From the NCBI GenBank assembly GCA_036270895.1, contig DATBBS010000609.1, positions 1 to 49,365 of the forward strand: 49,365 bases of DNA, written 5' to 3'. The position numbers and the translations under genes were made by a program. Below are positions 10,450 to 27,850 of this stretch, piece by piece; within the stretch, counting starts at the first letter, position 1; each line of letters begins with the position of its first letter. Source of the DNA: Xanthobacteraceae bacterium (GTDB taxonomy: Bacteria; Pseudomonadota; Alphaproteobacteria; Rhizobiales; Xanthobacteraceae). Below the pieces are notes generated by a model. That model had not been told where the DNA came from and did not search any database. It saw only the letters and a program-made list of their open reading frames with translations.

Positions 10450-11892
10450 ATGAGCTCACAAGACCCGGGACTGCCGCTCAAGTCCGCGCACACGTCCGAC
10501 GTCACAATCCCGGGGGTGGGATCACTCGGCTTCCTCCTGTGCGTGCTGGTGCCGCTCGCCCTGTGGTTCGCACCGCTCGGCCTGGCGCCGCAGACCCAGC
10601 ACGGCCTGGCGATCGTGTGCTTCATGGTGGTGGCGTGGATGACGCAGGCCATGGAGTTCGCGCTCGCCGGCTTCGTCGGCTGCTTCCTGTTCTGGGCGCT
10701 CGGGGTCGTGCGTTTCCCCGTGGCATTCAGCGGCTTTGCGAACGACACGCCCTGGTTCCTGTTTGCCGCCTTGCTGCTCGGGCGCGTCGCCAGCAAGTCG
10801 GGCCTCGCCCGCCGGCTCGCCTATTCGGTGATGCTGCGGGTGGGCTCGACCTATTCCAGGATCCTGCTCGGCCTCATCATGACCGACTTCATCCTGACCT
10901 TCATCGTGCCGTCCGGGCTCGCGCGGGTCGCGATCCTCGCCACCATCTCGCTCGCCTTGATCGAGGCGTTTCAGGCGCAGAAGGGCAGCAACATCGCCCG
11001 CGGCATGTTCCTGATCATGACCTACACCGGCAACCTGTTCGACAAGATGATCCTGGCCGGCGCCGGCTCGATCACGGCGGCTGGCGCGATGGCGAAATTC
11101 GGCAATGTCGAGGTGTTGTGGGGCCAGTGGCTGCTCGCTTTCCTGCCCGCCAGCATCATCACGGTGCTGATCGCGTGGCGCCTGACCCTGTGGCTCTATC
11201 CGCCCGAGCAGGCGGCGCTGACCGGCGGCACGGATTTTTTCCGCGACGAGCTCGTCAAGATGGGTCCGTGGTCGTGGCTGGAGAAGAAGGCCGCGCTGCT
11301 CGTCGGCGTCGCCATCCTGCTGTGGGTCACCGACTTCCTGCATCATCTGCCGCCCGCGATGATCGCGCTCGGCGTCGGCCTGTTCGCGCTGCTGCCGCCC
11401 GTCGGCATTCTCGACGAAGACGACATGCGCAACGTGAACTACATGCCGGTCTTCTTCGTCGCCGCCGCCATCAGCATGGGGAACGTGCTCGAAGCCACCA
11501 AGGGCCTCGACGTGCTCACCACGGTGTTCCTTACCAGGGCCGAGCCCTTCCTCGGCAATATCTTCAGCACGACCTTCGTCATGTATTGGACGGGGTTCAT
11601 CTATCACTTCTTTCTCGCCAGCGAGATCTCGATGCTGGGCACGTCGATGCCCCTGGTGATGCAGTTCGCCAAGTCGCACGACATGAACGCGCTGATGCTC
11701 GGCCTGTTGTGGACCTTCTCGGCCGGCGGCAAGCTGTTCGCCTACCAGTCGGGCGTGCTGGTGCTGGGCTATTCCTACGGCTACTTCGAGGCCCGCGACC
11801 TCGTGCGCATCGGCGCGCTGCTCACCCTGGCGGAGTTCTTCATCCTGCTGCTGCTGGTGCCGTTCTACTGGCCGTTGATCGGGATTTATTGA
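10450..11892 (+). CDS. DASS/SLC13-type (ArsB/NhaD superfamily) anion permease
   Basis: 480 aa, with 12 or more hydrophobic segments. The internal repeat architecture and motifs resemble citrate/sulfate-type symporters. Its last 60 codons recur as a ghost copy at 14579-14755. Confidence 0.7.
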   Translation: MSSQDPGLPLKSAHTSDVTIPGVGSLGFLLCVLVPLALWFAPLGLAPQTQHGLAIVCFMVVAWMTQAMEFALAGFVGCFLFWALGVVRFPVAFSGFANDTPWFLFAALLLGRVASKSGLARRLAYSVMLRVGSTYSRILLGLIMTDFILTFIVPSGLARVAILATISLALIEAFQAQKGSNIARGMFLIMTYTGNLFDKMILAGAGSITAAGAMAKFGNVEVLWGQWLLAFLPASIITVLIAWRLTLWLYPPEQAALTGGTDFFRDELVKMGPWSWLEKKAALLVGVAILLWVTDFLHHLPPAMIALGVGLFALLPPVGILDEDDMRNVNYMPVFFVAAAISMGNVLEATKGLDVLTTVFLTRAEPFLGNIFSTTFVMYWTGFIYHFFLASEISMLGTSMPLVMQFAKSHDMNALMLGLLWTFSAGGKLFAYQSGVLVLGYSYGYFEARDLVRIGALLTLAEFFILLLLVPFYWPLIGIY

Positions 11893-11904
11893 GACGGGCC
11901 GGCT

Positions 11905-11979
11905 GTCATTGCGAGCGCAGCGAAGCAATCTCGCTGCCTCGGCAAGCGTAGCCCGGATGAAGCGAAGCGAAATCCGGGG
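11905..11979. repeat. REP-like elements, family A arm (11905-11930) plus family B unit (11943-11979)
   Basis: gtcattgcgagcgcagcgaagcaatc matches the arms at 304-387. caagcgtagcccggatgaagcgaagcgaaatccgggg matches 13477-13512. Confidence 0.8.
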
Positions 11980-12083
11980 CTGTTGGGTCGCGCAGGAACT
12001 CATCACCAACCCGGGACGATGGCATCCCCGCAATTTACAACCTGTATGGGTTTGCTGCTAAGCTATGGGGCGGGGGGAACGCC

Positions 12084-12830
12084 ATGGCAATAACACGCGA
12101 CGGCGCGTCGGCCGCTCCCGAGCCGCCGGCCGCAATGGTCGATCGGCCCGAATCGGTTGGTCGCTTGATACTTATTGCTATCGGTTGGTGGTTGCTGACT
12201 GAACTCGCCAGCGGGTTCCCAGTCGGCTTCGCGGTAGGCGTATTGAAACGCTTTCAGAACATTTCTCTGTTCGACCCGATCCCCGCTACCGTCATGGTGT
12301 TCTTGGCAGGTTGCACCCTGCTGATCGCGGTGCGCAAACGAAGCGTGGTGGTTGGACACGGCGATCGTCGCGCTGGTGTAGATGACAGGCCGATAACACG
12401 ATGGTGGCTTCTGGTCGTGCTTGCGGTTCTGGCGGCAGCGTGGGCTTTCGTTGCATCGGCCTTCTGGAATGGCGTGTTCCCTCAGTGGGTCTCAAACTGG
12501 CGCGGCGCAAGCCCGTGGACGCTGATAGCGTTCACGGTAGGGACAGTCATCTTAGCCCCATTTGCGGAAGAGCTCTTTTACAGAGGGTGGCTCTGGACAG
12601 GGGTCCGACAACATTGGCGCGCATTTCCGACCGCACTGTTGTCATGTGGCCTTTGGCTCCTCTCGCACATAGACCGCGGGCTCCTGGTGCCGATAATGCT
12701 TATTCCGACCGCAGTTATCCTGGGTTTCGCACGGCATTTTTGCGGAATCAGGGCGGCAATTATTTTGCATGGTATCTACAATCTTGTCGTCGTCCTCGTA
12801 TTGGGACTCCTGCTCACGCGAACGTCTTAG
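12084..12830 (+). CDS. CPBP-family intramembrane glutamic endopeptidase (CAAX protease/Abi family)
   Basis: 248 aa membrane protein carrying the diagnostic EELFYRG motif (APFAEELFYRGWLW), then LLSH and ILHGIYN histidine motifs. Its codons are visibly more AT-rich at third positions than those of neighbouring genes. Confidence 0.8.
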   Translation: MAITRDGASAAPEPPAAMVDRPESVGRLILIAIGWWLLTELASGFPVGFAVGVLKRFQNISLFDPIPATVMVFLAGCTLLIAVRKRSVVVGHGDRRAGVDDRPITRWWLLVVLAVLAAAWAFVASAFWNGVFPQWVSNWRGASPWTLIAFTVGTVILAPFAEELFYRGWLWTGVRQHWRAFPTALLSCGLWLLSHIDRGLLVPIMLIPTAVILGFARHFCGIRAAIILHGIYNLVVVLVLGLLLTRTS

Positions 12831-12981
12831 CAAACGTAGCCTGGATGGAGAGAACGCGACTTCGCCGGAGCCTTCCGCTTCCAATCGTTGGTCGCGGCCC
12901 TGCAATTCGGTTCAAGACGCGGCGGGGCCGCTCGCTGCCATTATGCTGGGCGACGATGCCGTCCCGAAGGACGATTGCTCC

Positions 12982-13485
12982 ATGACCAACATCCGCTCCT
13001 GCCGTGACAACGATCGCGAGGCCATCCTCGCGATCGTCAATGCCGCCGCCGAGGCCTACCGGGGTGTGATCCCGGCCGATCGGTGGCATGAGCCCTACAT
13101 GTCGCCGCACGAGCTCGACCGCGAGATCGCCGCGGGTGTCGTGTTCTCGGGCTATGAGGCGGGCGGCAGGCTCGCGGGCGTGATGGGCTTCCAGCCGGTG
13201 CGCGACGTCGATCTCATTCGTCACGCCTACATCCTGCCGAGCCACCAGAGGTGCGGCATTGGCGGCGCTCTGCTGGCGCATCTGCGGCAATCGAGCACGC
13301 GGCTTATCCTGGTCGGCACATGGGAAGCCGCGGATTGGGCGATCAGCTTCTACCGGCGGCACGGCTTCGAGCTGGTTGCGCCTGCGCGCAAGACCGTGCT
13401 CCTCAAGACTTACTGGAACATTCCTGATCGTCAGATCGAGGTTTCGGTGGTGCTGGAAAGCCCTCCCGCCGATGAGCAAGCGTAG
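12982..13485 (+). CDS. GNAT-family N-acetyltransferase
   Basis: Based on ORF 12769..13485, with the start at ATG 12982 (AAGGA upstream) and an alternative ATG at 12943. The acetyl-CoA motif region HQRCGIGGALLAHL and the FYRRHGF block are present. The final codons and the stop lie inside a REP unit. Confidence 0.75.
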   Translation: MTNIRSCRDNDREAILAIVNAAAEAYRGVIPADRWHEPYMSPHELDREIAAGVVFSGYEAGGRLAGVMGFQPVRDVDLIRHAYILPSHQRCGIGGALLAHLRQSSTRLILVGTWEAADWAISFYRRHGFELVAPARKTVLLKTYWNIPDRQIEVSVVLESPPADEQA

Positions 13486-13650
13486 CCCCGATGGAGCGCA
13501 GCGCAATCCGGGTTTCTCGCACGCAATAGACTACAGCCCCGGATTTCGCTTCCGCCTTCGCGCTCCGCGCTTCGGCGGACTCGCTCGCGCGGAACCCGCC
13601 GTAGCTCGCGAAGCGAGCGAAGGCGCGGTCGCTCCATCCGGGCTACGGTT
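13477..13650. repeat. composite REP cluster (family B units in both orientations plus an internal palindrome)
   Basis: caagcgtagccccgatggagcgcagcgcaatccggg (13477-13512) pairs with gtcgctccatccgggctac (13628-13646). An inverted unit gccccggatttcgcttc lies at about 13536-13552. An internal palindrome cgccttcgc..gcgaaggcg is also present. The cluster fills the gap between the convergent GNAT and hydrolase genes. Confidence 0.75.
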
Positions 13651-13653
13651 CTG

Positions 13654-14490
13654 CTACGGCGCCAGCCGTCGGGCGAAAAACGCCAGGATCTCGTCGCGGG
13701 CCGCGATGGTCGGCTGGCCGGCTTCGTCGATCAGGTGGGCGGTCACGACGCTGTGCGGGCACCTCACGTGCCGGGCGAAGAACGGCGCCACATCGGTGTT
13801 CGCCGCGCTGTCGGCAAGCACGCGCCCCACGAACCGGTCGCCCAGCGCCGCCGCGTAGGCGGAGAAGCGCTGCGCCCGGCAGAATTTGTCGCCCGCGAAG
13901 CGATAGGCCATCACCGTGAGGTCGTCGCGCTCGAGCCGGTCGCGGACCGCCTTGATGTCCTCGGGAGCGATCTCGATGCCGGCGGGGTCGTTGAGCGGCA
14001 GTGCGGGCTGGGAGAGGACCGGCGCCAGCATCGCGGGCTCCAGCATCATCGTGAGCGCGAAGTTTCCGGTGAAGCACATGCCGATGGCGCCCACGCCGGG
14101 GCCGCCGCACTCCTGGTGCGCGAGCCGTGCCAGCGCCCGCAGCCATTGCGTCACGGGGCTCGTCTGGTTGGCGGCGAGCGCGCGGAACTCGGCGCTGACG
14201 CACGCGCGCTGAAAAACAGCCATGCCTTCCTCGGCGCCCGGCACGGCGCCGTCGCGGCCGAACAGCGAGGGCATGTAGACCGAGAAGCCGGCGTCGCGGA
14301 CCCAGCGGGCAAAGCGCGCAACCTCCGGGCTGATGCCCGGCATCTCGGCCATGACGATCACCGCGGGTCCCGCGCCGCCGACGTAAACCCGCTTGGCCAC
14401 GCCATCGAGCGTGATGTCGCGCGCTGCGAAATCGTCGAGCGGATCGTCTTCCTTCACGCTGCGTTCCGGCATGGCGGTTGTCCGTTTCAT
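13654..14490 (-). CDS. dienelactone hydrolase-family protein
   Basis: Based on ORF 13654..14601, with the start at ATG 14490 (GGGAGA upstream). The nucleophile region GAIGMCFTGNFAL and the overall alpha/beta layout match DLH-family proteins. Confidence 0.7.
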   Translation of the reverse strand: MKRTTAMPERSVKEDDPLDDFAARDITLDGVAKRVYVGGAGPAVIVMAEMPGISPEVARFARWVRDAGFSVYMPSLFGRDGAVPGAEEGMAVFQRACVSAEFRALAANQTSPVTQWLRALARLAHQECGGPGVGAIGMCFTGNFALTMMLEPAMLAPVLSQPALPLNDPAGIEIAPEDIKAVRDRLERDDLTVMAYRFAGDKFCRAQRFSAYAAALGDRFVGRVLADSAANTDVAPFFARHVRCPHSVVTAHLIDEAGQPTIAARDEILAFFARRLAP

Positions 14491-14578
14491 CGTGGTCTCC
14501 CGCACCACACACACTCTCTCTTCCATTGGCGAACGCGGTCGGCATCGGGAGAAGCAGGTCCGCGAGGGTTTTCCTCCG

Positions 14579-14755
14579 TGGGCCTTTTCGGCCGGCGGCA
14601 AGCCGGTCGCCTGCCAATCGGACGCGCCGGTGCTGGGCTATTCCTACGGTTTCGAAGCCCGCGACCTCGTCCGCATCGGGGCATTGGTCCCGCCGGCGGA
14701 TTTTTTCATCCGGCTGCTGCTCGTTCCGTTCTACTGGCCCTTGATCGGGATCTAC
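14579..14755 (+). pseudogene. ghost copy of the 3' end (last 60 codons) of the DASS permease gene at 10450..11892
   Basis: The ghost reads WAFSAGGKPVACQSDAPVLGYSYGFEARDLVRIGALVPPADFFIRLLLVPFYWPLIGIY. The live copy reads WTFSAGGKLFAYQSGVLVLGYSYGYFEARDLVRIGALLTLAEFFILLLLVPFYWPLIGIY. By manual alignment 47 of 60 positions are identical, with one single-codon gap and no frameshift. The stop is lost (TAT TGA has become TAC CGA). Nothing transporter-like precedes the ghost. Confidence 0.85.
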
Positions 14756-14834
14756 CGAGGGAGGACGGCCGCCATGAGCCTATGCGGCTGTCCTTGAAGC
14801 GGAGGCCGCCAAGCCGGCCTCGCCCTGCCGACTG

Positions 14835-16439
14835 TCACTCCTTGCCGACCAGGGTCATGTCCAGGAACCACGACTGCGCGGACACGAAGCCGCGCACGCT
14901 CTTGCTCATCGCGCGCGGATTGAGATCGTGCACGATGAAAAGCCAGGGCGGGTTGTCGACCAGCCGTTCATGCGCGGCGCGATACGCGGTCTCGATCTTG
15001 GCTGCGTCGGTCGCCTCCGCCAGCGTGGCGAGCGCCTGGTCGAAGACGTCGTCCTTCCATTGCTCGAAATTGAATCCGTTGGGCGAAAAATTGGCCGACG
15101 AGAAGTAGCGCGCCATGATGCCGACGTCGGATGACGGGGAGGAAACGTTGAGCGCCATCGCGCCATGGAGCGCCGGATTGTCCGGCGGCTGCCGCACCGC
15201 AGTCAGCAGCACCTGCCATTCGACCACGTCGAACTCGATGTTCACGCCGCAGGCCTGCTTGAGGTTCTGCTGCAGATACTCGTTCATCGGCAGCGGCAGC
15301 ATTTGGCCCGAGCCGGAGGTGGAGATCATCACCTTCAGCGACAGGGGTTTTTGCGGCGTGAATCCAGCCTCCGCCAGAAGCGCCTTGCCCTTGGCGGGGT
15401 CGAAGCCGTAGCGCTGCGCCGGATTGCCGAAGCCGGCGTCGGTCGGCTTGAGCCAACCCACGGATGGCTCGGCCGTGCCGTTGAGCAAGGTCACGATCCC
15501 GGAGCGGTCGATGCAGTAGTTGAGCCCCTGGCGGACGCGCACGTCCTTCACCGGGCTGTTGGTGGCGCCGATGTTGAACATCCACGGCCAGGTGTGGGGA
15601 TAGGAATTGGTCACGAGGGTGAAGCCGGCGGCCTTCAGCGACGGAATGCCGTCGGCTGGCGGCACCTCGATCCAGTCGACCTGGCCCGAGCGCAGCGCCG
15701 CGAGCCGCGCATTCGCTTCCGGAATCGGGAGAAGCCGGATCACATCGACCTTCGCCTTGTGCGCCGCGTCCCAATAACCGTCGAAACGCGCCAGCTCGGC
15801 GGCTTCGCGCGGCACGACCTTGGAGATGCGGAACGGCCCGGTCCCGGCCGCCGGCAGCATCGCGACCTTGCCCCAGTCGCGGCCCGCCTTCTCGAACGAG
15901 GCCGGAGACGTGAACAGAATGTAGACCGCCATGTAGGGAAAATACGAAGCGGGCTGCTTGGTCTCGATCGCGACCGTGTAATCGTCGACCTTGCGATAAC
16001 CGGCCATGACCGGGACGCGCGCGCGCGTCATGCCGGACGCCGGCGGCTCGAATTGCGGGCTGTCACTCTTGAAGTAACGGTCGAGATTCCAGATCACCGC
16101 ATCGGCGTTGAAGTCCGTTCCGTCGTGAAACTTGACGCCGTGGCGCAGGTGGAAGATCCAGGTCTTCTTGTCGTCTGCCGACTGCTCGTAGCGCTCGGCA
16201 AGGCCCGGCCGCAAACCGGCGAGACGGTCGGCCCGCGACAAGTCCCACAGCACCAGACCCTCGAAGGCCGGATAGCCGAGGAAGCGCAAGCCCTCGAACC
16301 CATTGTTGGGCATGCCGGTGGTGGTCGGAATATCCGAGGCCGTCATGGCGATGCGGAGCGTCGTCTCGCCTCGAGCCGCAGACAGCGATGCGAGCGCACC
16401 AAGCACGGCGAAGGCGTAAGCGGCAGCACGGATCCTCAT
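14835..16439 (-). CDS. ABC transporter substrate-binding protein, family 5 (peptide/nickel, DppA/OppA-like)
   Basis: 534 aa with signal peptide MRIRAAAYAFAVLGALASLSAARG. It is a paralogue of 16781..18370, sharing blocks such as KFHDG..FNADAVIWNL and GTGPF. Confidence 0.85.
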   Translation of the reverse strand: MRIRAAAYAFAVLGALASLSAARGETTLRIAMTASDIPTTTGMPNNGFEGLRFLGYPAFEGLVLWDLSRADRLAGLRPGLAERYEQSADDKKTWIFHLRHGVKFHDGTDFNADAVIWNLDRYFKSDSPQFEPPASGMTRARVPVMAGYRKVDDYTVAIETKQPASYFPYMAVYILFTSPASFEKAGRDWGKVAMLPAAGTGPFRISKVVPREAAELARFDGYWDAAHKAKVDVIRLLPIPEANARLAALRSGQVDWIEVPPADGIPSLKAAGFTLVTNSYPHTWPWMFNIGATNSPVKDVRVRQGLNYCIDRSGIVTLLNGTAEPSVGWLKPTDAGFGNPAQRYGFDPAKGKALLAEAGFTPQKPLSLKVMISTSGSGQMLPLPMNEYLQQNLKQACGVNIEFDVVEWQVLLTAVRQPPDNPALHGAMALNVSSPSSDVGIMARYFSSANFSPNGFNFEQWKDDVFDQALATLAEATDAAKIETAYRAAHERLVDNPPWLFIVHDLNPRAMSKSVRGFVSAQSWFLDMTLVGKE

Positions 16440-16720
16440 GGCTTCCTCCAGCAGCGGCGTCGGGCGGTCATGATCTCGGCAAGAAGCGGGCCAACGAAGG
16501 CACCAGGCGGGGTCCGGCCGTCGAGCGCGCTGGCGGTACCTCTCGCCGACCGCCGACAGGGCGATCGGTACGCAAAGTCATCATCGCCCGACATATTCGC
16601 GGAAAAACGCCGGCTTTGTCCATCGAGCCGTGGGTGGCGATTTTTTAGGCGCTCTGCGCGAAATTGCGCAAACCGCAAGCAAAAGGGGGTTGTCGCCGAG
16701 ACATTGCGCCCACGATCACG

Positions 16721-16736
16721 TGGCACCAAGTTTGCA
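16721..16736 (+). promoter_or_regulatory. sigma-54 (RpoN) -24/-12 promoter
   Basis: The sequence TGGCAC-caagt-TTGCA matches TGGCAC-N5-TTGCW with correct GG/GC spacing. It lies 45 nt upstream of the ATG at 16781, on the same strand. Confidence 0.7.
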
Positions 16737-16780
16737 CCGCTCCTCTGACGCGATCTGCGCGCGCCCCCCAGGAGCTTTCG

Positions 16781-18370: not shown

Positions 18371-18387
18371 GAGCATCGCGTCTTCGC

Positions 18388-19445: not shown

Positions 19446-20342
19446 ATGGTGGTGCTCTCCGACATCCGCATAGACGCCCCCGCCACGGTGCCGCTGCGCG
19501 CCGGCCGCGGCTATTGGGCGAGCGTGCTGCAGCGGCTCCTGCGCGATCCGGTTGCGGTGGCCGGCGGCTGCATCATCCTCGCCATCGTGCTCGCCGCGAT
19601 CTTCGCGCCCTGGATCGCGCCGGGCGACCCCTACAAGGGCGCGATGTTGCGCCGGCTCAAGCCGATCGGCGATGCGCTCTATTGGCTCGGTTCCGACGAG
19701 CTCGGCCGCGACATGCTCACCCGCCTGATTTATGGCGGGCGGCTGTCGCTGTTCATGGGCGTGCTGCCGGTCGCCTGCGCCTTCGCGATCGGCTCGACGC
19801 TCGGCATCTTTGCCGGCTATGTGGGCGGCTGGGTCAACATGACGGTCATGCGCGTGATCGACGTGTTCTATGCCTTTCCATCTGTGCTGCTCGCGATCGC
19901 ACTGTCGGGCGCGCTCGGCGCCGGCATAACCAATGCGGTGGTGTCGCTCACCATCGTGTTCGTCCCGCCGATCACGCGCGTGGCCGAAAGCGTCACCACT
20001 CAGATCCGCACGCGCGATTACGTCGAGGCGGCGCGGGTGAGCGGCGCCGGCGCCTTCACGATCATCCGAATCCACGTGCTCGGCAACGTGCTGGGGCCGA
20101 TCTTCGTCTATGCCACCAGCCTGATCAGCGTCTCAATGATCCTCGCCTCCGGCCTCTCGTTTCTCGGCCTCGGCTCGAAGCCGCCGGAGCCCGAATGGGG
20201 CCTCATGCTCAACACGCTGCGCACCGCAATCTACGTCCAGCCCGCGGTCGCGGCGCTGCCCGGCGTGATGATCTTCATCACCTCGATCTCGTTCAACCTG
20301 CTGTCGGACGGGCTGCGTTCCGCCATGGAGGTGCGCTCGTGA
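19446..20342 (+). CDS. ABC transporter permease (DppC/OppC-like)
   Basis: 298 aa. The N-terminal region [33 protein letters not shown] is typical of DppC-type permeases. It starts 4 nt after the preceding stop. Confidence 0.9.
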
Positions 20343-21394: not shown

Positions 21395-21404
21395 CGGAGC
21401 GCGC

Positions 21405-22397
21405 ATGAGCGAAGCGATCGTCGACGTGCAGGGACTGACCGTGGAGTTTCCCGGCCGGCCGCCGGTGCGCGCGGTCGGCGGCGTCGATCTGACGCTCAAG
21501 CCGGGCGAGGTGCTGGCGCTGCTCGGCGAGTCGGGCTCCGGCAAGAGCGTGACGTTGCGCGCCCTGATGCGCCTGCTGCCGAAACGCGCCGCCATCGGCG
21601 GAACGGTGCGCGTTGACGGACGCGACGTGCGGGCGATGCGCGCGCCCGAGCTTTCGAGCTATCGCGGGTCGATCATCGCGATGATCTTCCAGGAGCCCGG
21701 CCTCGCCTTCGATCCGGTCTATTCGGTGGGCGACCAGATCGCGGAGGCGGTGGTGCGCCATGCGGGCGTGTCCCGGGCGGAGGGCAGGGCCCGTGCGCTC
21801 GAATTGTTCGAGCGGGTGCGCATTCCCTCCGCGGCGCGGCGGCTCGACAACTATCCGCACGAGATGTCGGGCGGAATGCGCCAGCGCGCCATGATTGCGC
21901 TCGCGCTATCGTGCCGCCCGAAAGTGCTGCTCGCCGACGAGCCCACGACCGCGCTCGATGCGACCGTGCAGATCCAGATCCTGCTGCTGCTGCGCGAGCT
22001 GCAGCGCGAGCTCGGCCTCGCCGTCATCTTCGTGACGCACGACATCGGGGTGGCGACCGAGATCGCCGACCGCATCGCCGTGATGTATGCGGGCCGCATC
22101 GTCGAGACCGGCTCCTGTGGCGCGGTGATACGCGCAAGCGCGCATCCCTATACGCAGGGTCTGCTGTCGTCGCGGGCCGGCCAGGCCTTCGAACGCGGCG
22201 GTCGCCTGACGGCGATCCCCGGTGCGCCACCGGACCTTTCGCGGCTCATGGCCGGCTGCGCGTTTGCGCCGCGCTGCGCCAAGGTCCACGATGCGTGCCG
22301 CAACGGATTGCCGGCGGAAATCCCGGTCGGCCCGGGGCATGTGGCGCGCTGCGTCCTGCTCGCAAAGGCGCCGCTCGCGACCATGCCGGGCGTGTGA
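21405..22397 (+). CDS. ABC transporter ATP-binding protein (DppD/OppD-like)
   Basis: 330 aa with Walker A GESGSGKS, signature MSGGMRQR and Walker B LLADEPTTALD. GGAG lies upstream. Confidence 0.9.
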   Translation: MSEAIVDVQGLTVEFPGRPPVRAVGGVDLTLKPGEVLALLGESGSGKSVTLRALMRLLPKRAAIGGTVRVDGRDVRAMRAPELSSYRGSIIAMIFQEPGLAFDPVYSVGDQIAEAVVRHAGVSRAEGRARALELFERVRIPSAARRLDNYPHEMSGGMRQRAMIALALSCRPKVLLADEPTTALDATVQIQILLLLRELQRELGLAVIFVTHDIGVATEIADRIAVMYAGRIVETGSCGAVIRASAHPYTQGLLSSRAGQAFERGGRLTAIPGAPPDLSRLMAGCAFAPRCAKVHDACRNGLPAEIPVGPGHVARCVLLAKAPLATMPGV

Positions 22398-22418: not shown

Positions 22419-23543
22419 ATGGAAGGGAGCCGGAACAAATCGGTCCGACGCATGAGTGACCCGCTGACCCGCGTGACGACCCGCATCGCCTATATGGCGA
22501 CCCAGTTGCCTCGCCTCGCCTGGTATGCGGGTCACGGTTACGTCATGCGCCAGCTCGCGGCGCAAGCGCGGCGCCAAAGCGGCGTGCCGCAGCGGGACGG
22601 CGCGACTACGCCGGCGCGATCGGCGAACGCGCCCGTGCCGAACCAACGGCGCATCTACGCCGATTTGGGAGACCTGCTGGCGCAAGACCTCGCCAATATC
22701 GAAGCCGGCCTCTATCCGCTTCCCGCTGATCATGACGGCGGCTTGATGACGCGCCTTCGCCGCTCGCGGCTGTTCTTCGAGGACCTGCCGGCGGTTCATC
22801 GCCGGCGCCAACGCAACGCCTATCGCGAGGTGTTGACCGAGGCGATGGCGGGCAAGCGGCCGAAATATTACCTGCAGAACTTCCATTACCAATCCGGCGG
22901 CTGGCTGACCGCGGATTCGGCCGACCGCTACGACACGCAGGTCGAGGTGCTGTTCAAGGGCAGCGCCAATGCGATGCGGCGCCAGGCGCTGCCGCCGCTC
23001 CATGAGATCTTCGCCGGGCGCGATCAGCGCAGATTGCGGTTGCTCGACATCGCCTGTGGGACGGGCCGGTTCCTCGATTTCGTCAAACAGACGTGGCCGC
23101 GGCTTTCTGTGGTCGGGCTCGATCTATCGGAGGCCTACTGCCGGCATGCGCGCCATCACCTGAACCGCTGGTCGCGCGTCGATCTCGTCGTCGGCAACGC
23201 GGAAGCGCTTCCCGCGCCGGACAACAGCTTTGACGCGGCGACATGCATCTTCACGTTCCACGAGCTGCCGCCGCAGGCGCGCCGCAACGCGATCCGGGAA
23301 TGCGCCCGCGTTCTCAAACCGGGCGGACGTCTGGTGCTGCTCGATTCGTTGCAACGCGGCGACGAGCCGGACTACGACGGGACGCTCGACCGGTTTCCGC
23401 AGAATTATCACGAGCCCTATTACCGCAGCTATATCGGCGAGGATTTTGCCGCGATCGCGCGGCGGTTCGGACTGTTGCACAAACGCGACGTCAAGGCGTT
23501 CGTCTCCAAGGTGATGGTGTTCGACAAGCCGCATAGGTCCTGA
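22419..23543 (+). CDS. class I SAM-dependent methyltransferase
   Basis: It has the SAM motif LLDIACGTGRF and the post-I/II blocks NSFDAATCIFTFHELP and VLKPGGRLVLLD. The start is uncertain (ATG 22419 or 22452). Its 3' end recurs in decayed form at 27629-27850. Confidence 0.8.
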   Translation: MEGSRNKSVRRMSDPLTRVTTRIAYMATQLPRLAWYAGHGYVMRQLAAQARRQSGVPQRDGATTPARSANAPVPNQRRIYADLGDLLAQDLANIEAGLYPLPADHDGGLMTRLRRSRLFFEDLPAVHRRRQRNAYREVLTEAMAGKRPKYYLQNFHYQSGGWLTADSADRYDTQVEVLFKGSANAMRRQALPPLHEIFAGRDQRRLRLLDIACGTGRFLDFVKQTWPRLSVVGLDLSEAYCRHARHHLNRWSRVDLVVGNAEALPAPDNSFDAATCIFTFHELPPQARRNAIRECARVLKPGGRLVLLDSLQRGDEPDYDGTLDRFPQNYHEPYYRSYIGEDFAAIARRFGLLHKRDVKAFVSKVMVFDKPHRS

Positions 23544-23689
23544 CGGGGCGATCAAGCCCGCGATTCAGCATCCGCTGCGACACCCGCTTTGCGGCAAGAT
23601 CCGTTAAATCGGGGCAAGTCCGGCGAAATCGTTTCCACCGGGACGGTCCAAATAAAATTCCGCTCTCAAAGTGCAGCGAGGTGCACCCA

Positions 23690-25489
23690 ATGGGACGCGG
23701 CTTGATCAAACGTGCTCCGCTCGCGCCGTGTGCGCGCGTGACCTTCTCCCTCATCGGGCTGCTGTCGGCCACGGCGCTGTCGCCGGCGCAAGCCCAGTCC
23801 GATCCGGCGGCGCAGCCCGGCGCCTGTCCCGGCCCCAATGCCGGCATCACGCTGCCGGCGGGATTTTGCGCGACGGTGTTCGCCGACAATATCGGCCATG
23901 CGCGTCATCTCGCTGTTGCGCCCAACGGCGTCGTCTATGTCAACACCTGGAGCGGAAGCTACTACCGAAACGATACGCCTCCGGCCGGGGGCTTTCTGGT
24001 GGCGCTGCAGGACACCCATGGCGACGGGCACGCTGACCGCGTCACCCGCTTCGGCCAGACCCGCGAGCAGGGCGGCACCGGCGGCACCGGTATCGCGCTC
24101 CACAACGGGGCGCTTTATGCCGAGGCGGGCGACCGGATCCTGCGCTACGCCTTGGGGCAGGGCGCAACCGTTCCCGACCAGACCCCCGACGTGATCGTTT
24201 CGGGATTGCCGCTTACGGGCGATCATCCCATGCATCCCTTTGCGATCGACGCGCAGGGCGCCCTCTATGTCGACGTCGGCTCCGCCACCAACTCGTGCCA
24301 GGTCGCGAACCGCATGCCCGCCTCGCCGGGGCATCAGCCCTGCACCGAGCTCGAGATGCGCGCCGGCATCTGGCGCTACGACGCCAACCGCACCGGCCAG
24401 CGCTTCTCCCCGGCGGAGCGCTTCGCAACCGGGTTGCGCAACGGCGAGGGCATCGGCTTCGATTCGGCCGGCAGGATCATTGCGACCCAGCACGGGCGCG
24501 ATCAGCTGCGCGAGAACTTTCCCCGGCTCTATACGCCGCAGCAGGGTGCCGATGAGCCGGCGGAGGAATTGGTGCAGCTCGAGCGCGGCGGCGATTATGG
24601 CTGGCCCACTTGCTATTTCGACCTGAGGCGCAACAAGCTCGTCCTCGCCCCCGAATACGGCGGCGATGGCGGCAACGCGGTCGGCCCCTGCGCGCAGAAA
24701 CGCGCGCCGATCGCGGTCTTCCCGGGTCATTGGGCGCCGAATGGCCTTGCGATCTACAACGGGGCGCAGTTTCCCGCCGCCTACCAGGGCGGCGCCTTCA
24801 TCGCCTTCCATGGCTCCTGGAATCGGGCGCCGTTTCCTCAGGGCGGCTACAACGTGGTGTTCCAGCCGCTCAGCGAGGGCAGGGCCAGCGGTCCTTACGT
24901 CGTTTTCGCCGACGGCTTTGCGGGCGCCGTCAAGGAACCCGGTCGCGCCGCGCATCGCCCGTCCGGTGTCGCCGCCGGCCCCGATGGAGCGCTTTATATC
25001 TCGGATGACCAGCGCGGGCGGATTTGGCGTGTGACCTATCACGGGCCTGCCACGGTCGCCGTCGCGGCGGCGCCGTCGCCGTCCTCGCGCGCCGACAATT
25101 CCTCGCCCGGCGACGCCGTTCCGCCCGAGGGCATCCATCCGGATGCCGGCGCGCAAGCCGCCGCCCTGACGGTGCCGCCCGGGGCGACGCGCGACGAGGT
25201 CGCGCTCGGCGGCCGCATCTTCCACGGTGACGTCGCGAGTGCGCCATGTGCGGGCTGTCATGGAACGGATGCCACCGGCAGCCCGCTCGGCCCGGACCTT
25301 ACCAGCGGTACGTGGCTGTGGGGCGACGGCAGCCTCGCCGCGATCGAGAAGACCATCGCCGACGGCGTGCCGCACCCGAAGAAATACGGCTCGCCGATGC
25401 CGCCGATGGGCGGCGCAGCGTTGTCTTCCTCGCAACTGACGGCGGTCGCCGCCTATGTGTGGGCCCTGGGCCACGGGAGCGGCAAGTAG
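23690..25489 (+). CDS. PQQ-dependent sugar (sorbosone/glucose) dehydrogenase-like beta-propeller fused to a C-terminal c-type cytochrome
   Basis: Based on ORF 23681..25489, with ATG 23690 preceded by GAGGTG. It has a signal peptide, propeller blocks (HPMHPFAID, GLRNGEGIGFD, ATQHGRD, GGDYGWP, PSGVAAGPDGALYISDD) and a haem motif CAGCH with a downstream MPPMG. Confidence 0.75.
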   Translation: MGRGLIKRAPLAPCARVTFSLIGLLSATALSPAQAQSDPAAQPGACPGPNAGITLPAGFCATVFADNIGHARHLAVAPNGVVYVNTWSGSYYRNDTPPAGGFLVALQDTHGDGHADRVTRFGQTREQGGTGGTGIALHNGALYAEAGDRILRYALGQGATVPDQTPDVIVSGLPLTGDHPMHPFAIDAQGALYVDVGSATNSCQVANRMPASPGHQPCTELEMRAGIWRYDANRTGQRFSPAERFATGLRNGEGIGFDSAGRIIATQHGRDQLRENFPRLYTPQQGADEPAEELVQLERGGDYGWPTCYFDLRRNKLVLAPEYGGDGGNAVGPCAQKRAPIAVFPGHWAPNGLAIYNGAQFPAAYQGGAFIAFHGSWNRAPFPQGGYNVVFQPLSEGRASGPYVVFADGFAGAVKEPGRAAHRPSGVAAGPDGALYISDDQRGRIWRVTYHGPATVAVAAAPSPSSRADNSSPGDAVPPEGIHPDAGAQAAALTVPPGATRDEVALGGRIFHGDVASAPCAGCHGTDATGSPLGPDLTSGTWLWGDGSLAAIEKTIADGVPHPKKYGSPMPPMGGAALSSSQLTAVAAYVWALGHGSGK

Positions 25490-25644
25490 GGCCGCGAGAT
25501 CGGCTGGCCGGCCGGCGGGTGGAGCAGGGTTGGCGGGGGAATTGACGCAAGATCGAGACAATCGCGGCAAGCGAGCCCAAACCCTCGCGAAACGCATGGC
25601 TACATCAAGCCTGTCGAATTCTACCAAACCGAAAGGAACAGGCC

Positions 25645-25881
25645 ATGCGTTACATTTCGAAAGCTACCTATGCGATCGCCGTCATCGCGGCGGTTGCGGT
25701 GACCGCTTCGGCGGCCGATGCGCGCTCCTACCGTGCGTATGACGGTGCCTATAATTCTGTTGGCGGCGGTTTCGAGCGCTCCAACCGCAGCAGCATTCCC
25801 TACGACGCGGGCGGCGTTGCCTACAGCCGCGGTCAGCGGGGCCAGGACGACTCGAGCGACTTCCAGCTGCAGGGCCGGTAA
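25645..25881 (+). CDS. small secreted protein of unknown function (78 aa)
   Basis: AAAGGAA lies 7 nt upstream. The signal peptide is MRYISKATYAIAVIAAVAVTASAADA. The mature part is rich in Gly, Ser, Arg and Tyr and ends in DFQLQGR. A strong terminator follows. Confidence 0.55.
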   Translation: MRYISKATYAIAVIAAVAVTASAADARSYRAYDGAYNSVGGGFERSNRSSIPYDAGGVAYSRGQRGQDDSSDFQLQGR

Positions 25882-25962
25882 TCGGCGGCGCCGTTGCGCC
25901 TCCTGACTCGTAAAGTCCCCCAGGGTGGGATCCAGCGCTTCGTCCCCGGCGCCCCGCCCGAA

Positions 25963-25990
25963 CCCCGGCCTGCTCGGCCGGGGTTTTTTT
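25963..25990 (+). terminator. Rho-independent terminator
   Basis: The stem ccccggcc and ggccgggg forms a perfect 8 bp with loop tgctc, followed by a T7 run. Confidence 0.75.
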
Positions 25991-26186
25991 GCGTCGCGCC
26001 TGGCGCATGTCCCGATCCCGCGCGCCAGTGTGCCGCAAGATCGGATCGATCGCCGCAATCCAGGAGAAGCGAATTCGCCGGCGCATCGACATGTTCGGGT
26101 GAGCACAGGAGTGTCGCATGTCGCCGACGGATGTTCTCGGGCGGCGAGTCGGATCGTCGGGCGGTGCGCCGTGAAAGGAGATCGTC

Positions 26187-26456
26187 ATGTTGCGTAGGAC
26201 CATGGTCGTTCTCGTGGTTGCGCTTGGTCTGGGAAGCTTTGGGCTTTCCGCCAGCGCGTTTGCCCGCGCCAGCGGCCTCGAAGAAAGTGGTTTCGGCGGC
26301 GATCACGCGGCCAGCGGCTTCGACGGGCGTCGCGATGGCGGCAGCTACCGCGCTGAAAGTGGCGGCGTCAGCGGCTTGCGTCGCGGAACCCACGGGCGCC
26401 CCGACGTGTGGGGCCACTGGGGCGCCTATGACGGGCCCATGATCCCTCCGATTTGA
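26187..26456 (+). CDS. small secreted Gly-rich protein of unknown function (89 aa)
   Basis: AAAGGAGA lies 6 nt upstream. The signal peptide is MLRRTMVVLVVALGLGSFGLSASAFA. The mature part is rich in Gly, Asp and Arg and ends in DVWGHWGAYDGPMIPPI. Confidence 0.55.
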   Translation: MLRRTMVVLVVALGLGSFGLSASAFARASGLEESGFGGDHAASGFDGRRDGGSYRAESGGVSGLRRGTHGRPDVWGHWGAYDGPMIPPI

Positions 26457-26508
26457 ACCGCCTTTGCCCGATCACGCGTGCATTGAACGCAGACCCACAG
26501 GAGCCGCC

Positions 26509-27627
26509 ATGAACCTCTCGAGACGCGGCATTCTGATCGCGGGCGGGAGCGCCTTGCTCGCGGCCGAAGCCGTCACGCGGGCGTCAGCCCAGCAGCGCCC
26601 TGACGGCATGGACGCCATGCCGGGGCCCGAGGAGATGCAGGTGGCGCAACGGGGCGGCCTCTACGCCAACCTGCACGACCCGAACATCACCGAGTTGCCG
26701 CCGGACGCGTTCGCGCAACGCTTCACCTTCTCTCCGGCTCCGAAAGCCGATCCGTCCGGCGCCTGGTCCGAAGCGGCGCCCTTGGCGGTGCCGCGCAGCG
26801 AGATGGCATGGGCGACGGCCGAGAACGATCGCATGCACGTCATCGGCGGCTATGCGGCGCAGCAGGTGGCGCGCCGCTACCACGACGTCTTCGATGCGCG
26901 CACGGGAGAGTGGCAACAGGCGGCGCCGATTCCGCGCGGCGCCAACCACATCGGCGTCGCGGCCGATGCCGGGGTCATCTATGCGTTCGGAGGCTTTGTC
27001 GAGCAGAACCGCATCGCGGTCCCGGATTGCTACGCCTATGTGGTCGCCGACGACCGCTGGCACGCCATCCGGCCGCTCTCGCGCGGTTCGCGCGGCGCGA
27101 TCTCGGTGGTCGCCTTCAACGGGCGGATCCACGCCATCGGCGGACGCGACGTGCGCTCGGTCGACTGGCACGAGGCGTATCACCCGGATGCCGATACCTG
27201 GGAAACCCTTGCGCCGGTTCCCGGGCCTCGCGATCACACGGCGGCGGTCGTGGTCGCGGGATCGATCTCGGTCGTCGGCGGCCGGATGGACACCTTCGAT
27301 TTCAACACCGGCATGCATGTCGTCTACGACGTCGGCGCGGACCGCTGGGAGGAGCGCGCCCCGATGCCGACGCCGCGCTCGGGCCATGGCGGCGTTCTTT
27401 ACCGCGGCAAATTGTTCTGCATGGGCGGCGAGGGCACGCGCCGCGTGTTCGGCCAGACCGAAGCCTATGACCCGCAGGCGGACAGCTGGCAGGCTTACGC
27501 CGCCATGAGGACGCCGCGCCACGGCATGGGCGCCGCCGTGGTGGGTGATGCCATTCACGTCGCCGGGGGCGGCCCCATGAACGGCGGCGCCTTCCAGACC
27601 TCCGTGCACGAGGTGTTCAGGGTCTGA
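26509..27627 (+). CDS. Kelch-repeat beta-propeller protein with twin-arginine (Tat) signal
   Basis: Based on ORF 26464..27627, with ATG 26509 preceded by AGGAG. The Tat-like N-terminus is MNLSRRGILIAGGSALLAA. Repeated units of the form h..GG...........yd...d.W are present (VIGGY, AFGGF, AIGGR, VVGGR, CMGGE, VAGGG). Confidence 0.75.
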   Translation: MNLSRRGILIAGGSALLAAEAVTRASAQQRPDGMDAMPGPEEMQVAQRGGLYANLHDPNITELPPDAFAQRFTFSPAPKADPSGAWSEAAPLAVPRSEMAWATAENDRMHVIGGYAAQQVARRYHDVFDARTGEWQQAAPIPRGANHIGVAADAGVIYAFGGFVEQNRIAVPDCYAYVVADDRWHAIRPLSRGSRGAISVVAFNGRIHAIGGRDVRSVDWHEAYHPDADTWETLAPVPGPRDHTAAVVVAGSISVVGGRMDTFDFNTGMHVVYDVGADRWEERAPMPTPRSGHGGVLYRGKLFCMGGEGTRRVFGQTEAYDPQADSWQAYAAMRTPRHGMGAAVVGDAIHVAGGGPMNGGAFQTSVHEVFRV

Positions 27628-27628
27628 C

Positions 27629-27850
27629 CTTCATCCGGTTCCGCTGCGCCGCACGCACGCCGCAACGCCGTCGGGAATGCGCCCGCATTCTCAAACCGGG
27701 CGAATGATAAACCGGGGGAATGATTACGAGTCCTATGACGGTAGCTATATCGGGGAGGGCTTTTGTGCGCGCCGCGACTCCGACCGATGCGCGAATGCGA
27801 GGTCAGGCGTTCGATGCACGGAATGCCTCGCTGCCGCGAGGTCACAAATC
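27629..27850 (+). pseudogene. decayed ghost copy of the 3' end of the methyltransferase gene at 22419..23543
   Basis: cgggaatgcgcccgcattctcaaaccgggcg (27672-27702) matches 23295-23325 at 30 of 31 nt. The downstream NDYESYDGSYIGEGF corresponds to NYHEPYYRSYIGEDF in the live gene. Relative to the live copy it has a 1-nt deletion, in-frame TGA TAA and an internal deletion of about 70 nt. The end coordinates are approximate. Confidence 0.75.

Follow-up and report, generated by a model that had tools for sequence, protein, structure and literature searches.

The transporter gene and the copy of its end

The window, by which we mean the whole analysed stretch of 49,365 nucleotides, is DNA of a soil bacterium of the Xanthobacteraceae, in which two leftover gene-end copies lie downstream of inserted genes. 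The first pair starts from an intact gene of the DASS family (Na+/sulfate-dicarboxylate symporter), which occupies positions 10450-11892 of the plus strand and encodes 480 aa (Pfam Na_sulph_symp, 1.6e-52); the cupin-DASS arrangement on the left of this gene is kept in L001, L115, L116 and L183 (L numbers designate the loci of relatives). The live copy of repeat 1 (11709-11909, plus strand) comprises the last 184 nt of this gene, including the stop codon, and about 17 nt beyond, and it recurs as ghost 1 (14578-14775, plus strand), a displaced resident DASS 3' end that is contiguous with the native right flank. The two copies align at 81.6% identity over 201 columns with one 3-nt gap (E 1e-51). 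Both edges of the repeat are sharp, and at its start the copies agree over 9 nt and, after a single mismatch, over 29 more. Ghost 1 is damaged: its stop codon TGA has become CGA and one codon is gone, and the JGI annotation places it inside a 108-aa 'hypothetical protein' (14471-14797).

Ghost 1 lies 2.87 kb downstream of the live end, and the DNA between them, here called islet 1, has three genes and no recombinase. The cargo begins directly past the DASS stop codon with two REP-type palindromic elements (11895-11983), at whose start the similarity to the sequence downstream of ghost 1 ends; in L184, too, REP elements of this type come after the DASS stop. Next comes a CAAX/Rce1-like membrane protease gene (12084-12830, plus strand; Pfam Rce1-like) in a region of lower G+C (0.59-0.61), the only member of its protein cluster, in whose place L105 holds an AraC regulator gene. 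The second cargo gene, a GNAT acetyltransferase (12943-13485, plus strand; Pfam), is accompanied by its own conserved upstream region (from ~12899); this region aligns with its counterparts in L105, L272 and L353, loci in which GNAT stands behind AraC in an ordinary chromosomal setting. Considering that GNAT retains the upstream region seen beside AraC in relatives, the cargo looks like the relatives' chromosomal DNA; indeed, the AraC-GNAT pair stands in ordinary neighbourhoods in L272 and L353-L356, and the order in L105 is AraC-GNAT-DLH-ghost. Further REP-type elements (13476-13552) separate GNAT from the third gene, a dienelactone hydrolase (DLH; 13654-14472, minus strand; Pfam DLH), whose protein cluster has 108 members and whose stretch, 13638-14486, recurs at 86.5% identity in four unrelated contexts (L263, L264, L265 and L267). 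Non-coding DNA amounts to only ~570 nt of the islet, much of it REP sequence. On the right stands the native flanking gene for an SBP_bac_5 solute-binding protein (14835-16439, minus strand; Pfam), which converges on the DASS gene in relatives with an empty site.

Such an empty site is present in L115 and L116. In L115 a single copy (5618-5818) matches both copies of the window, and the DASS end lies 76 nt from the binding-protein gene; single-copy ends are also found in L116, L185 and L251, the last within a DASS pseudogene with two internal deletions. Both native flanks of islet 1 are collinear with those of the empty-site relatives. Judged from these sequence comparisons, islet 1 is a genuine insertion, as the first-pass annotation of this DNA had supposed, and the ghost does mark the breakpoint to the codon, at 11708/11709 against 14577/14578.

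The origin of the two copies can be read from L105, which carries ghost 1 too, in a less decayed state. Taking the consensus of the two ghosts as the ancestral ghost, 17 of 184 sites differ from the live end (90.8% identity), distributed as 1, 1 and 15 over codon positions 1, 2 and 3. The changes that followed the split of the two ghosts fall mainly at positions 1 and 2 (5, 6, 0 and 1, 2, 1), and decay in place would be expected to put about half of all differences there (P ~5e-4, hand calculation). The split thus argues that two functional alleles were joined, rather than that a local duplication decayed. This excludes a mundane tandem duplication for islet 1 and fits both mechanisms proposed in the first-pass annotation, an integrative element and homologous capture. 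The live end differs least from the single-copy ends of L116, L185 and L115 (7, 9 and 10 sites of 184), and the nearest relatives of ghost 1 are L183 and L240. These two are also nearest for the binding-protein flank (93.5%), so that ghost 1 groups with the flank it touches, and the live end and the ghost share synonymous states with different relatives. The DASS gene itself is an allele mosaic in which nothing sets position 11709 apart as a break, so that homologous recombination is evidently frequent here. Against the two-allele reading, the same signature would arise if ordinary homologous recombination had replaced the allele of the live end at a later time.

The methyltransferase fragment and its variable slot

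The second pair starts from an intact gene for a class I SAM-dependent methyltransferase (MT; 22419-23543, plus strand; Pfam), conserved across the Xanthobacteraceae at 61-93% aa identity (80 loci), of which the part 23264-23502 is repeated. Its counterpart, ghost 2 (27643-27813, plus strand), is a fragment of a same-clade MT gene with frameshifts, stop codons and an internal deletion of ~61 nt between two blocks, of which the first (live 23264-23325, ghost 27643-27702) is 88.7% identical and the second (live 23402-23502, ghost 27718-27813) 73.3%. The ghost ends 41 nt short of the position of the MT stop codon, making it an internal fragment and not a 3' end; the similarity of the sequence past it to the MT tail is not significant (z = 0.6), and there is no homology beyond 27819. 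Its substitutions spread over the codon positions as 16, 11 and 14, and all are ghost-only when set against the MT genes of the window, L047, L105 and L107. By all appearances of its sequence, ghost 2 is a neutrally decayed internal MT fragment.

Downstream of the gene lie two segments. The dehydrogenase module (23578-26013, plus strand; Pfam) consists of a GSDH-type gene (glucose/sorbosone dehydrogenase family) with a cytochrome c domain (23681-25489) and a terminator-like hairpin (~25963-25990); it is collinear in L106, L107 and L268 at 88-95% identity, with no MT ghost after it. The second segment, 26014-27819 on the plus strand, is a strain-specific slot filling of 1.8 kb, made up of 450 nt of unique sequence, a kelch-repeat gene (26509-27627) and ghost 2. 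Since the same three relatives keep the dehydrogenase but lack this segment, the supposed cargo of pair 2 is not one unit. The slot instead holds 148 nt of REP-like sequence in L106 and L107, and YkuD and DUF900 genes in L268 and L269. The three fillings have nearly the same junctions, which differ by no more than 25 nt at the left edge (25988 or 26013) and 4 nt at the right edge (27820 or 27824), and the MT fragment is absent from relatives of the kelch gene.

The first-pass annotation had given both islets one layout, namely an intact gene, cargo directly after its stop codon, and a displaced copy of its 3' end. For pair 1 this description holds exactly as written; for pair 2 it fails on the internal position of the copy and on the composite cargo. 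Nor do the two share one history, considering that the neutrally decayed ghost 2 sits in a 1.8-kb segment that L106, L107 and L268 do not have.

The surroundings of the MT gene are variable on a larger scale. A tRNA-Arg(ACG) gene lies at 40713-40789 on the minus strand (ARAGORN, Rfam), and in the closest genome (L047) this gene follows the MT gene after ~80 nt, so that the 17 kb at 23544-40712, on the tRNA gene's 3' side, form a variable region. The window contains no repeated tRNA fragment; in L263, a P4-type integrase adjoins a tRNA-Arg fragment. In the closest MAG (L001/L047) the DASS and MT genes are 66 kb apart and have different neighbours.

A self-BLAST of the whole window ranks pairs 1 and 2 as the top non-paralogous direct repeats, which excludes a chance origin; only pair 1 emerges as a gene-end fragment from a protein-level scan of 42 genes. 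The two pairs are real scars, but of different event types: pair 1 is a clean scar at which foreign DNA was joined via the DASS gene's own tail, and pair 2 is an old stray fragment.

Similar scars and the route of insertion

Pfam searches found no integrase, transposase or resolvase in any ORF from 12084 to 43900, and five recombinase queries gave nothing in the window (tblastn), in keeping with the earlier statement that no mobility function is encoded. Run over 4.28 Mb, the same queries left every DASS or MT locus without a hit. Relatives have comparable recombinase-free scars, which vary in gene and breakpoint: at MT in L052, at an ABC_sub_bind gene in L090 and at atp2 in L268. The cargo is one gene of 1297 aa (GGDEF/EAL) in L052 and one methyltransferase gene in L090 (both Pfam). 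A recombinase is absent from all five scar instances, and neither integrase nor excisionase, nor a remnant of either, was found in the window, L105, L052, L090 or L268; the L105 version of islet 1 ends at a contig edge on the left, and its negatives cover the sequence right of that edge. Where the ghosts begin varies: codon 282 for the MT ghost of the window, about codon 333 (window numbering) for that of L052, and aa 167 for the atp2 ghost; this argues that the breakpoints are not site-specific. In L268 the MT gene is lost, leaving only the atp2 fragment at the junction.

The repeats, the empty site, the synonymous divergence of the alleles, the lack of recombinases, the alternative slot fillings and the further scars in relatives are observed; by which enzymes the join was made (RecA or integrase), which way the DNA moved and in what sequence things happened, we infer as follows. 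The reading that we favour, with about as much belief as doubt, is homology-anchored capture without a dedicated recombinase, with a decayed element of the e14 type as its main rival. Foreign DNA, probably ordinary chromosomal DNA of a related bacterium, would have been joined through homology with the DASS 3' end, most likely by a RecA-dependent route. The present 3' end of the DASS gene would be the allele of another lineage, and its former, resident end would have moved 2.87 kb downstream, where it is presumably decaying. Perhaps the join was a single Campbell-type crossover of a circular intermediate with ~200 nt of gene end, or perhaps it had one homologous and one illegitimate end, as in homology-facilitated illegitimate recombination. 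The cargo may later have been remodelled around REP elements, yielding CAAX in this strain and AraC in L105, and the islet may then have spread through homologous recombination in its flanks. Ghost 2 would be an older fragment bordering one filling of an intergenic slot that has at least three alternative contents, exchanged by recombination in conserved flanks inside the plastic region between MT and tRNA-Arg.

Several points count against RecA capture. In experiments, the usual outcome of homology-facilitated illegitimate recombination is a loss of recipient DNA, not its duplication. The sharp limits on both sides of the 201-nt repeat suit an integrating circle, and one possible source of circles is a site-specific element. 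A donor arrangement, with DASS followed by this cargo and no ghost, was not found among ~100 DASS loci, and the left contig end of L105 leaves room for a recombinase further left.

It is possible, though less probable than capture, that integrative elements of the e14/phage-21 type left islet 1, and perhaps the other scars, as their remnants. Here a tyrosine integrase and an attP carrying a replacement 3' end would have kept the gene intact and turned the resident end into a downstream pseudogene, the integrase module being deleted later and the cargo remodelled. Anatomy and divergence match the icd/e14/icdC control of E. coli K-12, where the repeat has 165 nt, 92.7% identity and a codon-position split of 1, 0, 11, against 184 coding nt (201 in all), 90.8% and 1, 1, 15 for islet 1. 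With the same anatomy and the same synonymous-only divergence in this control, the repeat alone cannot separate integrase from RecA. A single-copy empty site and the sharp bounds of repeat 1 also suit such an element, the 9 and 29 identical nt around one mismatch at its start leave room for a core, and the integrase in L263 indicates that integrase islands are active in the group. On the other hand, no trace of the integrase module was found in the loci searched, and islet 1 has little non-coding DNA; the two MT ghosts differ in breakpoint, the cargo preserves the chromosomal GNAT context of relatives, and no other DASS locus among ~100 shows an element at this site.

Less probable again, and in our view improbable, is that the ghosts are by-products of larger rearrangements or deletions, with an ancestral DASS truncated at the AraC-GNAT-DLH junction (as in L105) and an intact gene regained later from a relative by homologous recombination. 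The L105 ghost does adjoin AraC-GNAT, two genes that elsewhere form an ordinary chromosomal pair; DASS can be dispensed with, being a pseudogene in L251; and both the lone atp2 fragment of L268 and the distant, differently bordered DASS and MT genes of the closest MAG speak of rearrangement. However, with both native flanks collinear and only 2.87 kb between them, insertion is simpler, and regaining the gene would itself require a one-sided join.

Local tandem duplication, with or without a subsequent insertion, followed by decay of the downstream copy in place, is very unlikely: although the even, ghost-only substitutions of pair 2 allow an origin from the clade's own MT gene, and the L090 ghost adjoins a gene of a family often found in tandem copies, the synonymous split of pair 1 is unexpected if one copy was never under selection, its live end and ghost share synonymous states with different relatives, the DNA between the copies is unrelated and not copied from the neighbourhood, and ghost 2 is absent from the orthologous place in close relatives.

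Comparison with known systems

Among the closest parallels is the insertion of the cryptic prophage e14, and of phage 21, at icd. In E. coli K-12 the last 165 nt of icd lie inside e14, at whose far end stands the pseudogene icdC (PMC6379469, PMC13626634). As at islet 1, the gene is intact and functional, the insert starts within its 3' end, a displaced copy of the end remains, and strains with an empty site exist. The first-pass annotation had set the repeats apart as far longer and more diverged than att duplications; this is true against typical tRNA islands, but not against the e14/icd class, and the claim that length and divergence distinguish them from integrase scars falls with the E. 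coli control, whose signature means that long, diverged repeats do not exclude an integrase. The difference lies in the content: e14 carries intE, xisE and 15 kb of phage genes, whereas islet 1 has 2.7 kb with three unrelated housekeeping-type genes separated by REP elements, and a recombinase in neither lineage examined.

Islands linked to tRNA genes offer a second comparison, as the 17 kb between MT and tRNA-Arg(ACG) are missing from the closest genome and L263 has its P4-type integrase at a tRNA-Arg fragment; the window differs in lacking both an integrase and a repeat of the tRNA 3' end. The slot at 26014-27819 recalls the minimal mobile elements of Neisseria, with conserved flanks, three unrelated fillings in close relatives and no mobility genes (PMC3082526, PMC1538595). 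Here, however, a pseudogene fragment derived from a neighbouring gene forms part of one filling.

For islet 1, the displacement arrays to which homology-facilitated illegitimate recombination has been applied, namely the T6SS effector-immunity modules of V. cholerae and the C-terminal displacement of Rhs proteins, share a homology anchor upstream, an old 3' end shifted downstream as an orphan, and no integrase; in such arrays, events can stack (PMC5361080). There the displaced ends are alternative toxin domains with immunity genes, whilst here live and ghost ends are allelic versions of one sequence, belonging to a transporter and a methyltransferase gene. To speak of an uncharacterised insertion route, as was first suggested, is therefore too strong: replacement-end integration (PMC6379469), homology-facilitated illegitimate recombination with displaced 3' ends (PMC5361080 and references it cites), the same route as proposed for small variable segments (PMC2884548), and flank-mediated cassette swapping (PMC3082526, PMC1538595) have all been described, and both events in the window, like both main mechanisms considered for them, belong to these known kinds.

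An occupied site behind the transporter gene

The window sequence is part of a JGI soil-metagenome contig (Ga0376656_0000036; 150,840 bp), has a G+C content of ~66%, and finds its nearest named relatives in Pseudolabrys and other Xanthobacteraceae MAGs. Candidate genes were chosen by third-position G+C and named with Pfam. Self-BLAST of the whole window returned two pairs of sequences, here pair 1 and pair 2, as the top direct repeats other than paralogous genes, each consisting of part of a live gene and a displaced downstream copy, or ghost; ghost 1 was the sole gene-end fragment in a protein-level scan of 42 window genes.

The live copy of pair 1 (11709-11909) covers the 184 terminal nt of an intact DASS transporter gene (10450-11892) and runs ~17 nt past its stop codon. 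Ghost 1 (14578-14775) is 81.6% identical to it over 201 columns, with one 3-nt gap, and has lost the stop codon. The gene's 3' end is repeated on both sides of an insert, the upstream copy completing the intact DASS ORF. This insert, islet 1, measures 2,869 bp and holds one repeat copy, REPs, a CAAX protease gene, a GNAT gene, further REPs, a dienelactone hydrolase (DLH) gene on the opposite strand and a 105-nt spacer. In the relative L115, a metagenome contig whose DASS gene is ~91% identical to that of the window (DNA) and ends 76 nt from a convergent binding-protein gene, the site is unoccupied: a single stretch (L115 5618-5818) matches both window copies. Three further loci (L116, L185 and L251) are likewise single-copy at the DASS end, and two (L183 and L240) carry a different extra 0.5-0.6 kb at the same spot. 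On these comparisons islet 1 is a true insertion.

A second lineage bears the same scar. Locus L105 (~95% identical) carries this ghost at the corresponding position, adjoining the same hydrolase and GNAT genes, and less decayed than that of the window: the stop codon is kept and the deletion is absent. An AraC regulator gene stands where the window has CAAX, and the contig stops 400 nt further on; as far as it reaches, its gene calls include no integrase.

The GNAT gene of islet 1 keeps the upstream region that is found beside AraC in ordinary neighbourhoods (L272, L353-L356), the contigs of one GNAT-cluster relative hold ordinary AraC-GNAT neighbourhoods only, and the hydrolase stretch (13638-14486) is present in four other contexts; the cargo of islet 1 looks like chromosomal DNA of relatives. 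Only distant matches to the hydrolase came from the plasmid collection. None of ~100 DASS loci had the donor arrangement (DASS then CAAX, GNAT or DLH, without a ghost), and no donor sequence was found past the junction at 14577/14578. Equating the window CAAX gene with an Rce1-like gene near AraC-GNAT in L353 was rejected, as the two genes are unrelated.

Several smaller features belong to this site. In the JGI annotation ghost 1 is called as a 108-aa hypothetical protein (14471-14797, plus strand; P0059, on 5 contigs) and the L105 ghost is a 101-aa gene call; both look like annotation artefacts. Within the window one REP type (GTAGCCCGGATGAAGCG...) is confined to islet 1, where its three copies (11942-11978, 12830-12866 and 13476-13512) stand behind one plus-strand gene each; this type also follows the DASS stop codon in L184. 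A second REP type (GTCATTGCGAGCG...) is found at the islet's left edge (11905-11930) and occurs once more at 362-387. In L251 (1-1143) DASS has decayed to a pseudogene, two internal deletions having removed what corresponds to window 10307-10692 and 11134-11736; the transporter is therefore dispensable in the group.

Allelic divergence of the repeat and routes of entry

We define the ancestral ghost as the state common to the window and L105 ghosts, i.e. the ghost as it stood when those lineages split. Between it and the live end, 17 of the 184 coding sites differ, distributed 1, 1 and 15 over the codon positions. Changes after the split number 11 in the window ghost (5, 6, 0) and four in the L105 ghost (1, 2, 1), which is the pattern of sequence no longer read as protein. 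An identical start followed by free drift predicts about half of the differences at positions 1 and 2; 2 of 17 were seen, with a probability of ~5e-4 (binomial, hand calculation). Tandem duplication with decay in situ, which the first-pass annotation rightly did not favour for pair 1, predicts an even spread over codon positions and is dismissed by the 1, 1, 15 observed.

At synonymous sites the ghost shares some states with L183, L240, L251 and L001, and different ones are common to the live end and L116, L185 and L115. L183 and L240 are nearest both to ghost 1 and to the adjoining binding-protein gene (93.5%); since ghost and flank have the same nearest relatives, the ghost would be the resident end on its native right flank, and the live end would have come from another lineage. 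The two copies were probably already alleles of different lineages when they were joined, a state that a later allelic replacement of the live end would mimic. A sliding comparison with 10 relatives found the DASS gene mosaic throughout, with no particular break at 11709; an outgroup-based comparison between the live end, the ghost and L001 offered too little sequence for a resolved tree, and the 184-nt repeat is itself too short for a robust one.

It is possible, if rather doubtful, that islet 1 is a decayed element of the e14 type, in which a tyrosine integrase acts on an attP carrying a replacement gene end (PMC6379469; PMC13626634). This would fit both the unoccupied single-copy site in relatives and the 3'-end direct repeats that bracket the insert. 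We took E. coli as a positive control: in the K-12 annotation e14 starts 165 nt inside icd, the icdC pseudogene lies at its far end, and identity between the two 165-nt copies is 92.7%, their differences falling 1, 0 and 11 by codon position. This signature is integrase-made, and long, diverged repeats are therefore no evidence against an integrase. However, no tyrosine integrase or excisionase was found among the ORFs of both islets (Pfam), in the L105 gene calls or by tblastn with five recombinase queries (intE, a P4-type integrase, two serine recombinases and a transposase), a search that would miss distant families; nor did any ORF between 12 kb and 44 kb of the window match integrase, transposase or resolvase families in Pfam. 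In this respect the first-pass annotation, which saw no mobility genes in either islet, was right. The crossover, moreover, is not shared: the methyltransferase (MT) ghost of the window begins at codon 282 and that of L052, a locus from a Pseudorhodoplanes MAG, at codon ~333 (window numbering), although the ghost edges may have eroded. The pair 1 repeat starts with 9 identical nt, one mismatch and 29 identical nt, which would leave room for an identical core at the crossover, but such runs are expected by chance at 91% identity.

We favour, at about an even chance, a capture of islet 1 anchored on homology and made without a dedicated recombinase, because no recombinase appears in any instance, breakpoints differ within the same gene, and the cargo is like relatives' chromosomal DNA; the repeat alone cannot separate this from e14-type integration, and the L105 contig stops short of the left side of its island. 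Such a capture could have started from a circular molecule with ~200 nt of the gene end on it, integrated by a single RecA crossover; this would account for the sharp repeat limits on both sides. Alternatively, one homologous and one illegitimate join could have sufficed, as has been proposed for displaced 3' ends at V. cholerae T6SS clusters and Rhs loci (PMC5361080) and for small variable segments generally (PMC2884548).

The layout recurs, as the first-pass annotation had claimed. We scanned 270 sources for ghosts (269 fetched loci and the window; 3.17 Mb, 1,686 ORFs of at least 200 aa). In L052 an MT gene (10001-11077) precedes a lone 1297-aa GGDEF/EAL gene, behind which lies an MT 3'-end copy (15177-15292; 79% over 116 nt) that reaches the stop region. 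L090 (18430-20871) holds an ABC_sub_bind gene, one small methyltransferase gene on the opposite strand and then a 326-nt 3'-end copy (92.3%). These two 3'-end ghosts are independent. In L268 (6014-7197, reverse strand; DNA comparison) the intact end of atp2 is separated by 960 nt of unrelated sequence from an atp2 fragment (aa 167-216), which in turn touches the dehydrogenase module; this is another scar of live gene, cargo and ghost, and the MT gene is absent from this locus. No recombinase was found in either window islet, in L105 as far as the contig reaches, or in L052, L090 and L268.

As a control, 80 unrelated loci (1.05 Mb, 552 ORFs) were scanned and yielded one 21-aa fragment. The whole 4.2 Mb scanned holds four same-strand downstream 3'-end ghosts, one of only 21 aa, and no upstream 5'-end ghosts. 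The cargos seen measure 0.96, 1.1, 2.7, 4.0 and 4.1 kb, all ~4 kb or less; we could speculate that such sizes would fit delivery as small DNA pieces, for instance in gene-transfer-agent particles. Perhaps soil Xanthobacteraceae possess a recurrent recombinase-free route that adds one to three genes after a gene via its last 100-300 nt and leaves diverged 3'-end ghosts, 3' favoured over 5', at ~one per megabase – a rough rate, as the comparison loci were gathered around the DASS, MT, kelch and dehydrogenase genes and are partly redundant – but we consider this quite improbable.

Interchangeable fillings behind the methyltransferase gene

The live part of pair 2 lies inside an intact SAM-dependent MT gene (22419-23543) and matches its downstream copy in two blocks, 23264-23325 versus 27643-27702 (88.7%) and 23402-23502 versus 27718-27813 (73.3%), ghost 2 lacking the ~61 nt between them. 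Ghost 2 ends 41 nt before the MT stop codon and is therefore an internal fragment, and not a repeated gene 3' end; a local alignment of the MT tail with the sequence after 27819 was no better than shuffled (z = 0.6).

Two close relatives, L106 (95%) and L107 (92%), are collinear with the window from the ABC transporter through the MT and dehydrogenase genes to 26013 and resume at 27820, carrying 148 nt of REP-like sequence (L106 11715-11862) in place of the window's 1,806 nt. As both run through the dehydrogenase gene without the filling, that gene is ruled out as cargo bracketed by ghost 2. The window filling (26014-27819) is made up of a unique 450-nt stretch, a kelch-repeat gene and ghost 2, and L268 and L269 show a third, with YkuD and DUF900 genes (1.95 kb, L268 1671-3623; junctions 25988 and 27824). 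Across fillings the left junctions agree within 25 nt and the right ones within 4 nt; ghost 2 ends at most 6 nt from the right junction. The slot is bounded by the dehydrogenase-gene terminator and a small conserved ORF (27915-28283).

Ghost 2 carries states typical of this clade's MT genes. Its 41 substitutions over 168 aligned sites fall evenly on the codon positions (16, 11, 14) and are accompanied by frameshifts and stop codons; despite this even spread, the ghost is absent at the orthologous place in close relatives. No MT fragment follows the kelch genes found elsewhere at 84-93% DNA identity (L121, L122, L123, L141 and L143). Ghost 2 is an old pseudogene fragment travelling with one of several interchangeable intergenic fillings. 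The scheme of live end, cargo and ghost end that the first-pass annotation gave to both islets thus holds for pair 1 and was partly a misdescription of pair 2, which involves an internal fragment and a dehydrogenase gene that is not bracketed cargo; nor do the islets share one history, ghost 2 being internal, evenly decayed and part of a swapped slot filling. The dehydrogenase (GSDH) gene has no close relative among species-representative genomes (at most 73% aa) and does not help with the history of islet 2.

The kelch-repeat protein (26509-27627, plus strand) shares 71-76% identity in full-length matches (up to 81% in partial ones) with proteins of the Betaproteobacteria Paraburkholderia, Caballeronia and Burkholderia, and 85-94% with Pseudolabrys MAG proteins, which suggests that the gene may have moved between classes. 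A 33-nt motif (TG.CGCAAGATC...ATCG..GCAA) occurs three times: 3' of MT (23590-23622), 3' of the dehydrogenase gene (25543-25575) and at the start of the strain-specific segment (26031-26063).

Variation extends to tRNA-Arg(ACG) (40713-40789, minus strand), which lies ~80 nt after the MT gene in L047, from the closest species-level genome (one MAG with L001). On its 3' side, 17 kb (23544-40712) with 16 genes (regulators, an MFS transporter, SDR, hydrolases and two-component genes) are variable and have been added or lost there; of the marks of a tRNA-targeting island, neither an integrase nor a direct repeat of the tRNA-Arg 3' end was found in the window. Across the tRNA from this region, a low-G+C stretch (0.58-0.60) contains a PAS histidine-kinase gene (40984-42534, minus strand); L047 has only ~170 nt there, and this is therefore a second insertion beside the tRNA. 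In L263 a P4-type integrase with AlpA-like and resolvase genes accompanies a 51-nt tRNA-Arg 3'-end fragment (4632-6203 and 11413-11489), whose 70-nt flank matches window 40643-40712; the full tRNA-Arg gene is 5 kb away, and between the two lies a hydrolase gene 86.5% identical to that of islet 1. L001 and L047 form one contig (MAG MFD02134.bin.2.163), in which DASS and MT are 66 kb apart versus 10.5 kb in the window, and the peptide ABC-transporter operon (window 14835-22397) adjoins neither gene.

Gene gain and comparison with known systems

Most accessory genes of soil bacteria carry no visible mobility machinery, and their entry into the chromosome is poorly documented beyond a few model species. 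Islet 1 offers a clean case from nature, with an empty site, a second lineage bearing the same scar and a codon-position test. This test distinguishes the joining of two alleles from the decay of a copy in situ, can be applied to any genome and, combined with a check for nearby recombinases, would measure gene gain by homology-anchored capture versus site-specific elements. There is also a practical side, as such ghosts get called as hypothetical proteins, ghost 1 among them.

Whilst an uncharacterised insertion route had been suggested for these islets, no new kind of mechanism is revealed; they belong to known kinds, namely replacement-end integration or homology-anchored capture with 3'-end displacement, plus flank-mediated cassette swapping, met here in transport and methyltransferase genes of an ordinary sort in uncultured soil Xanthobacteraceae. 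The length and divergence of the repeats, once held to set them apart from known mechanisms, do not do so, since the icd/icdC control has the same signature; indeed, e14 with icd and icdC shares both its anatomy and its divergence signature with islet 1. The slot that holds ghost 2, in turn, is like the minimal mobile elements of Neisseria: its flanks are conserved, its contents in close relatives are of three unrelated kinds, and it carries no mobility genes.
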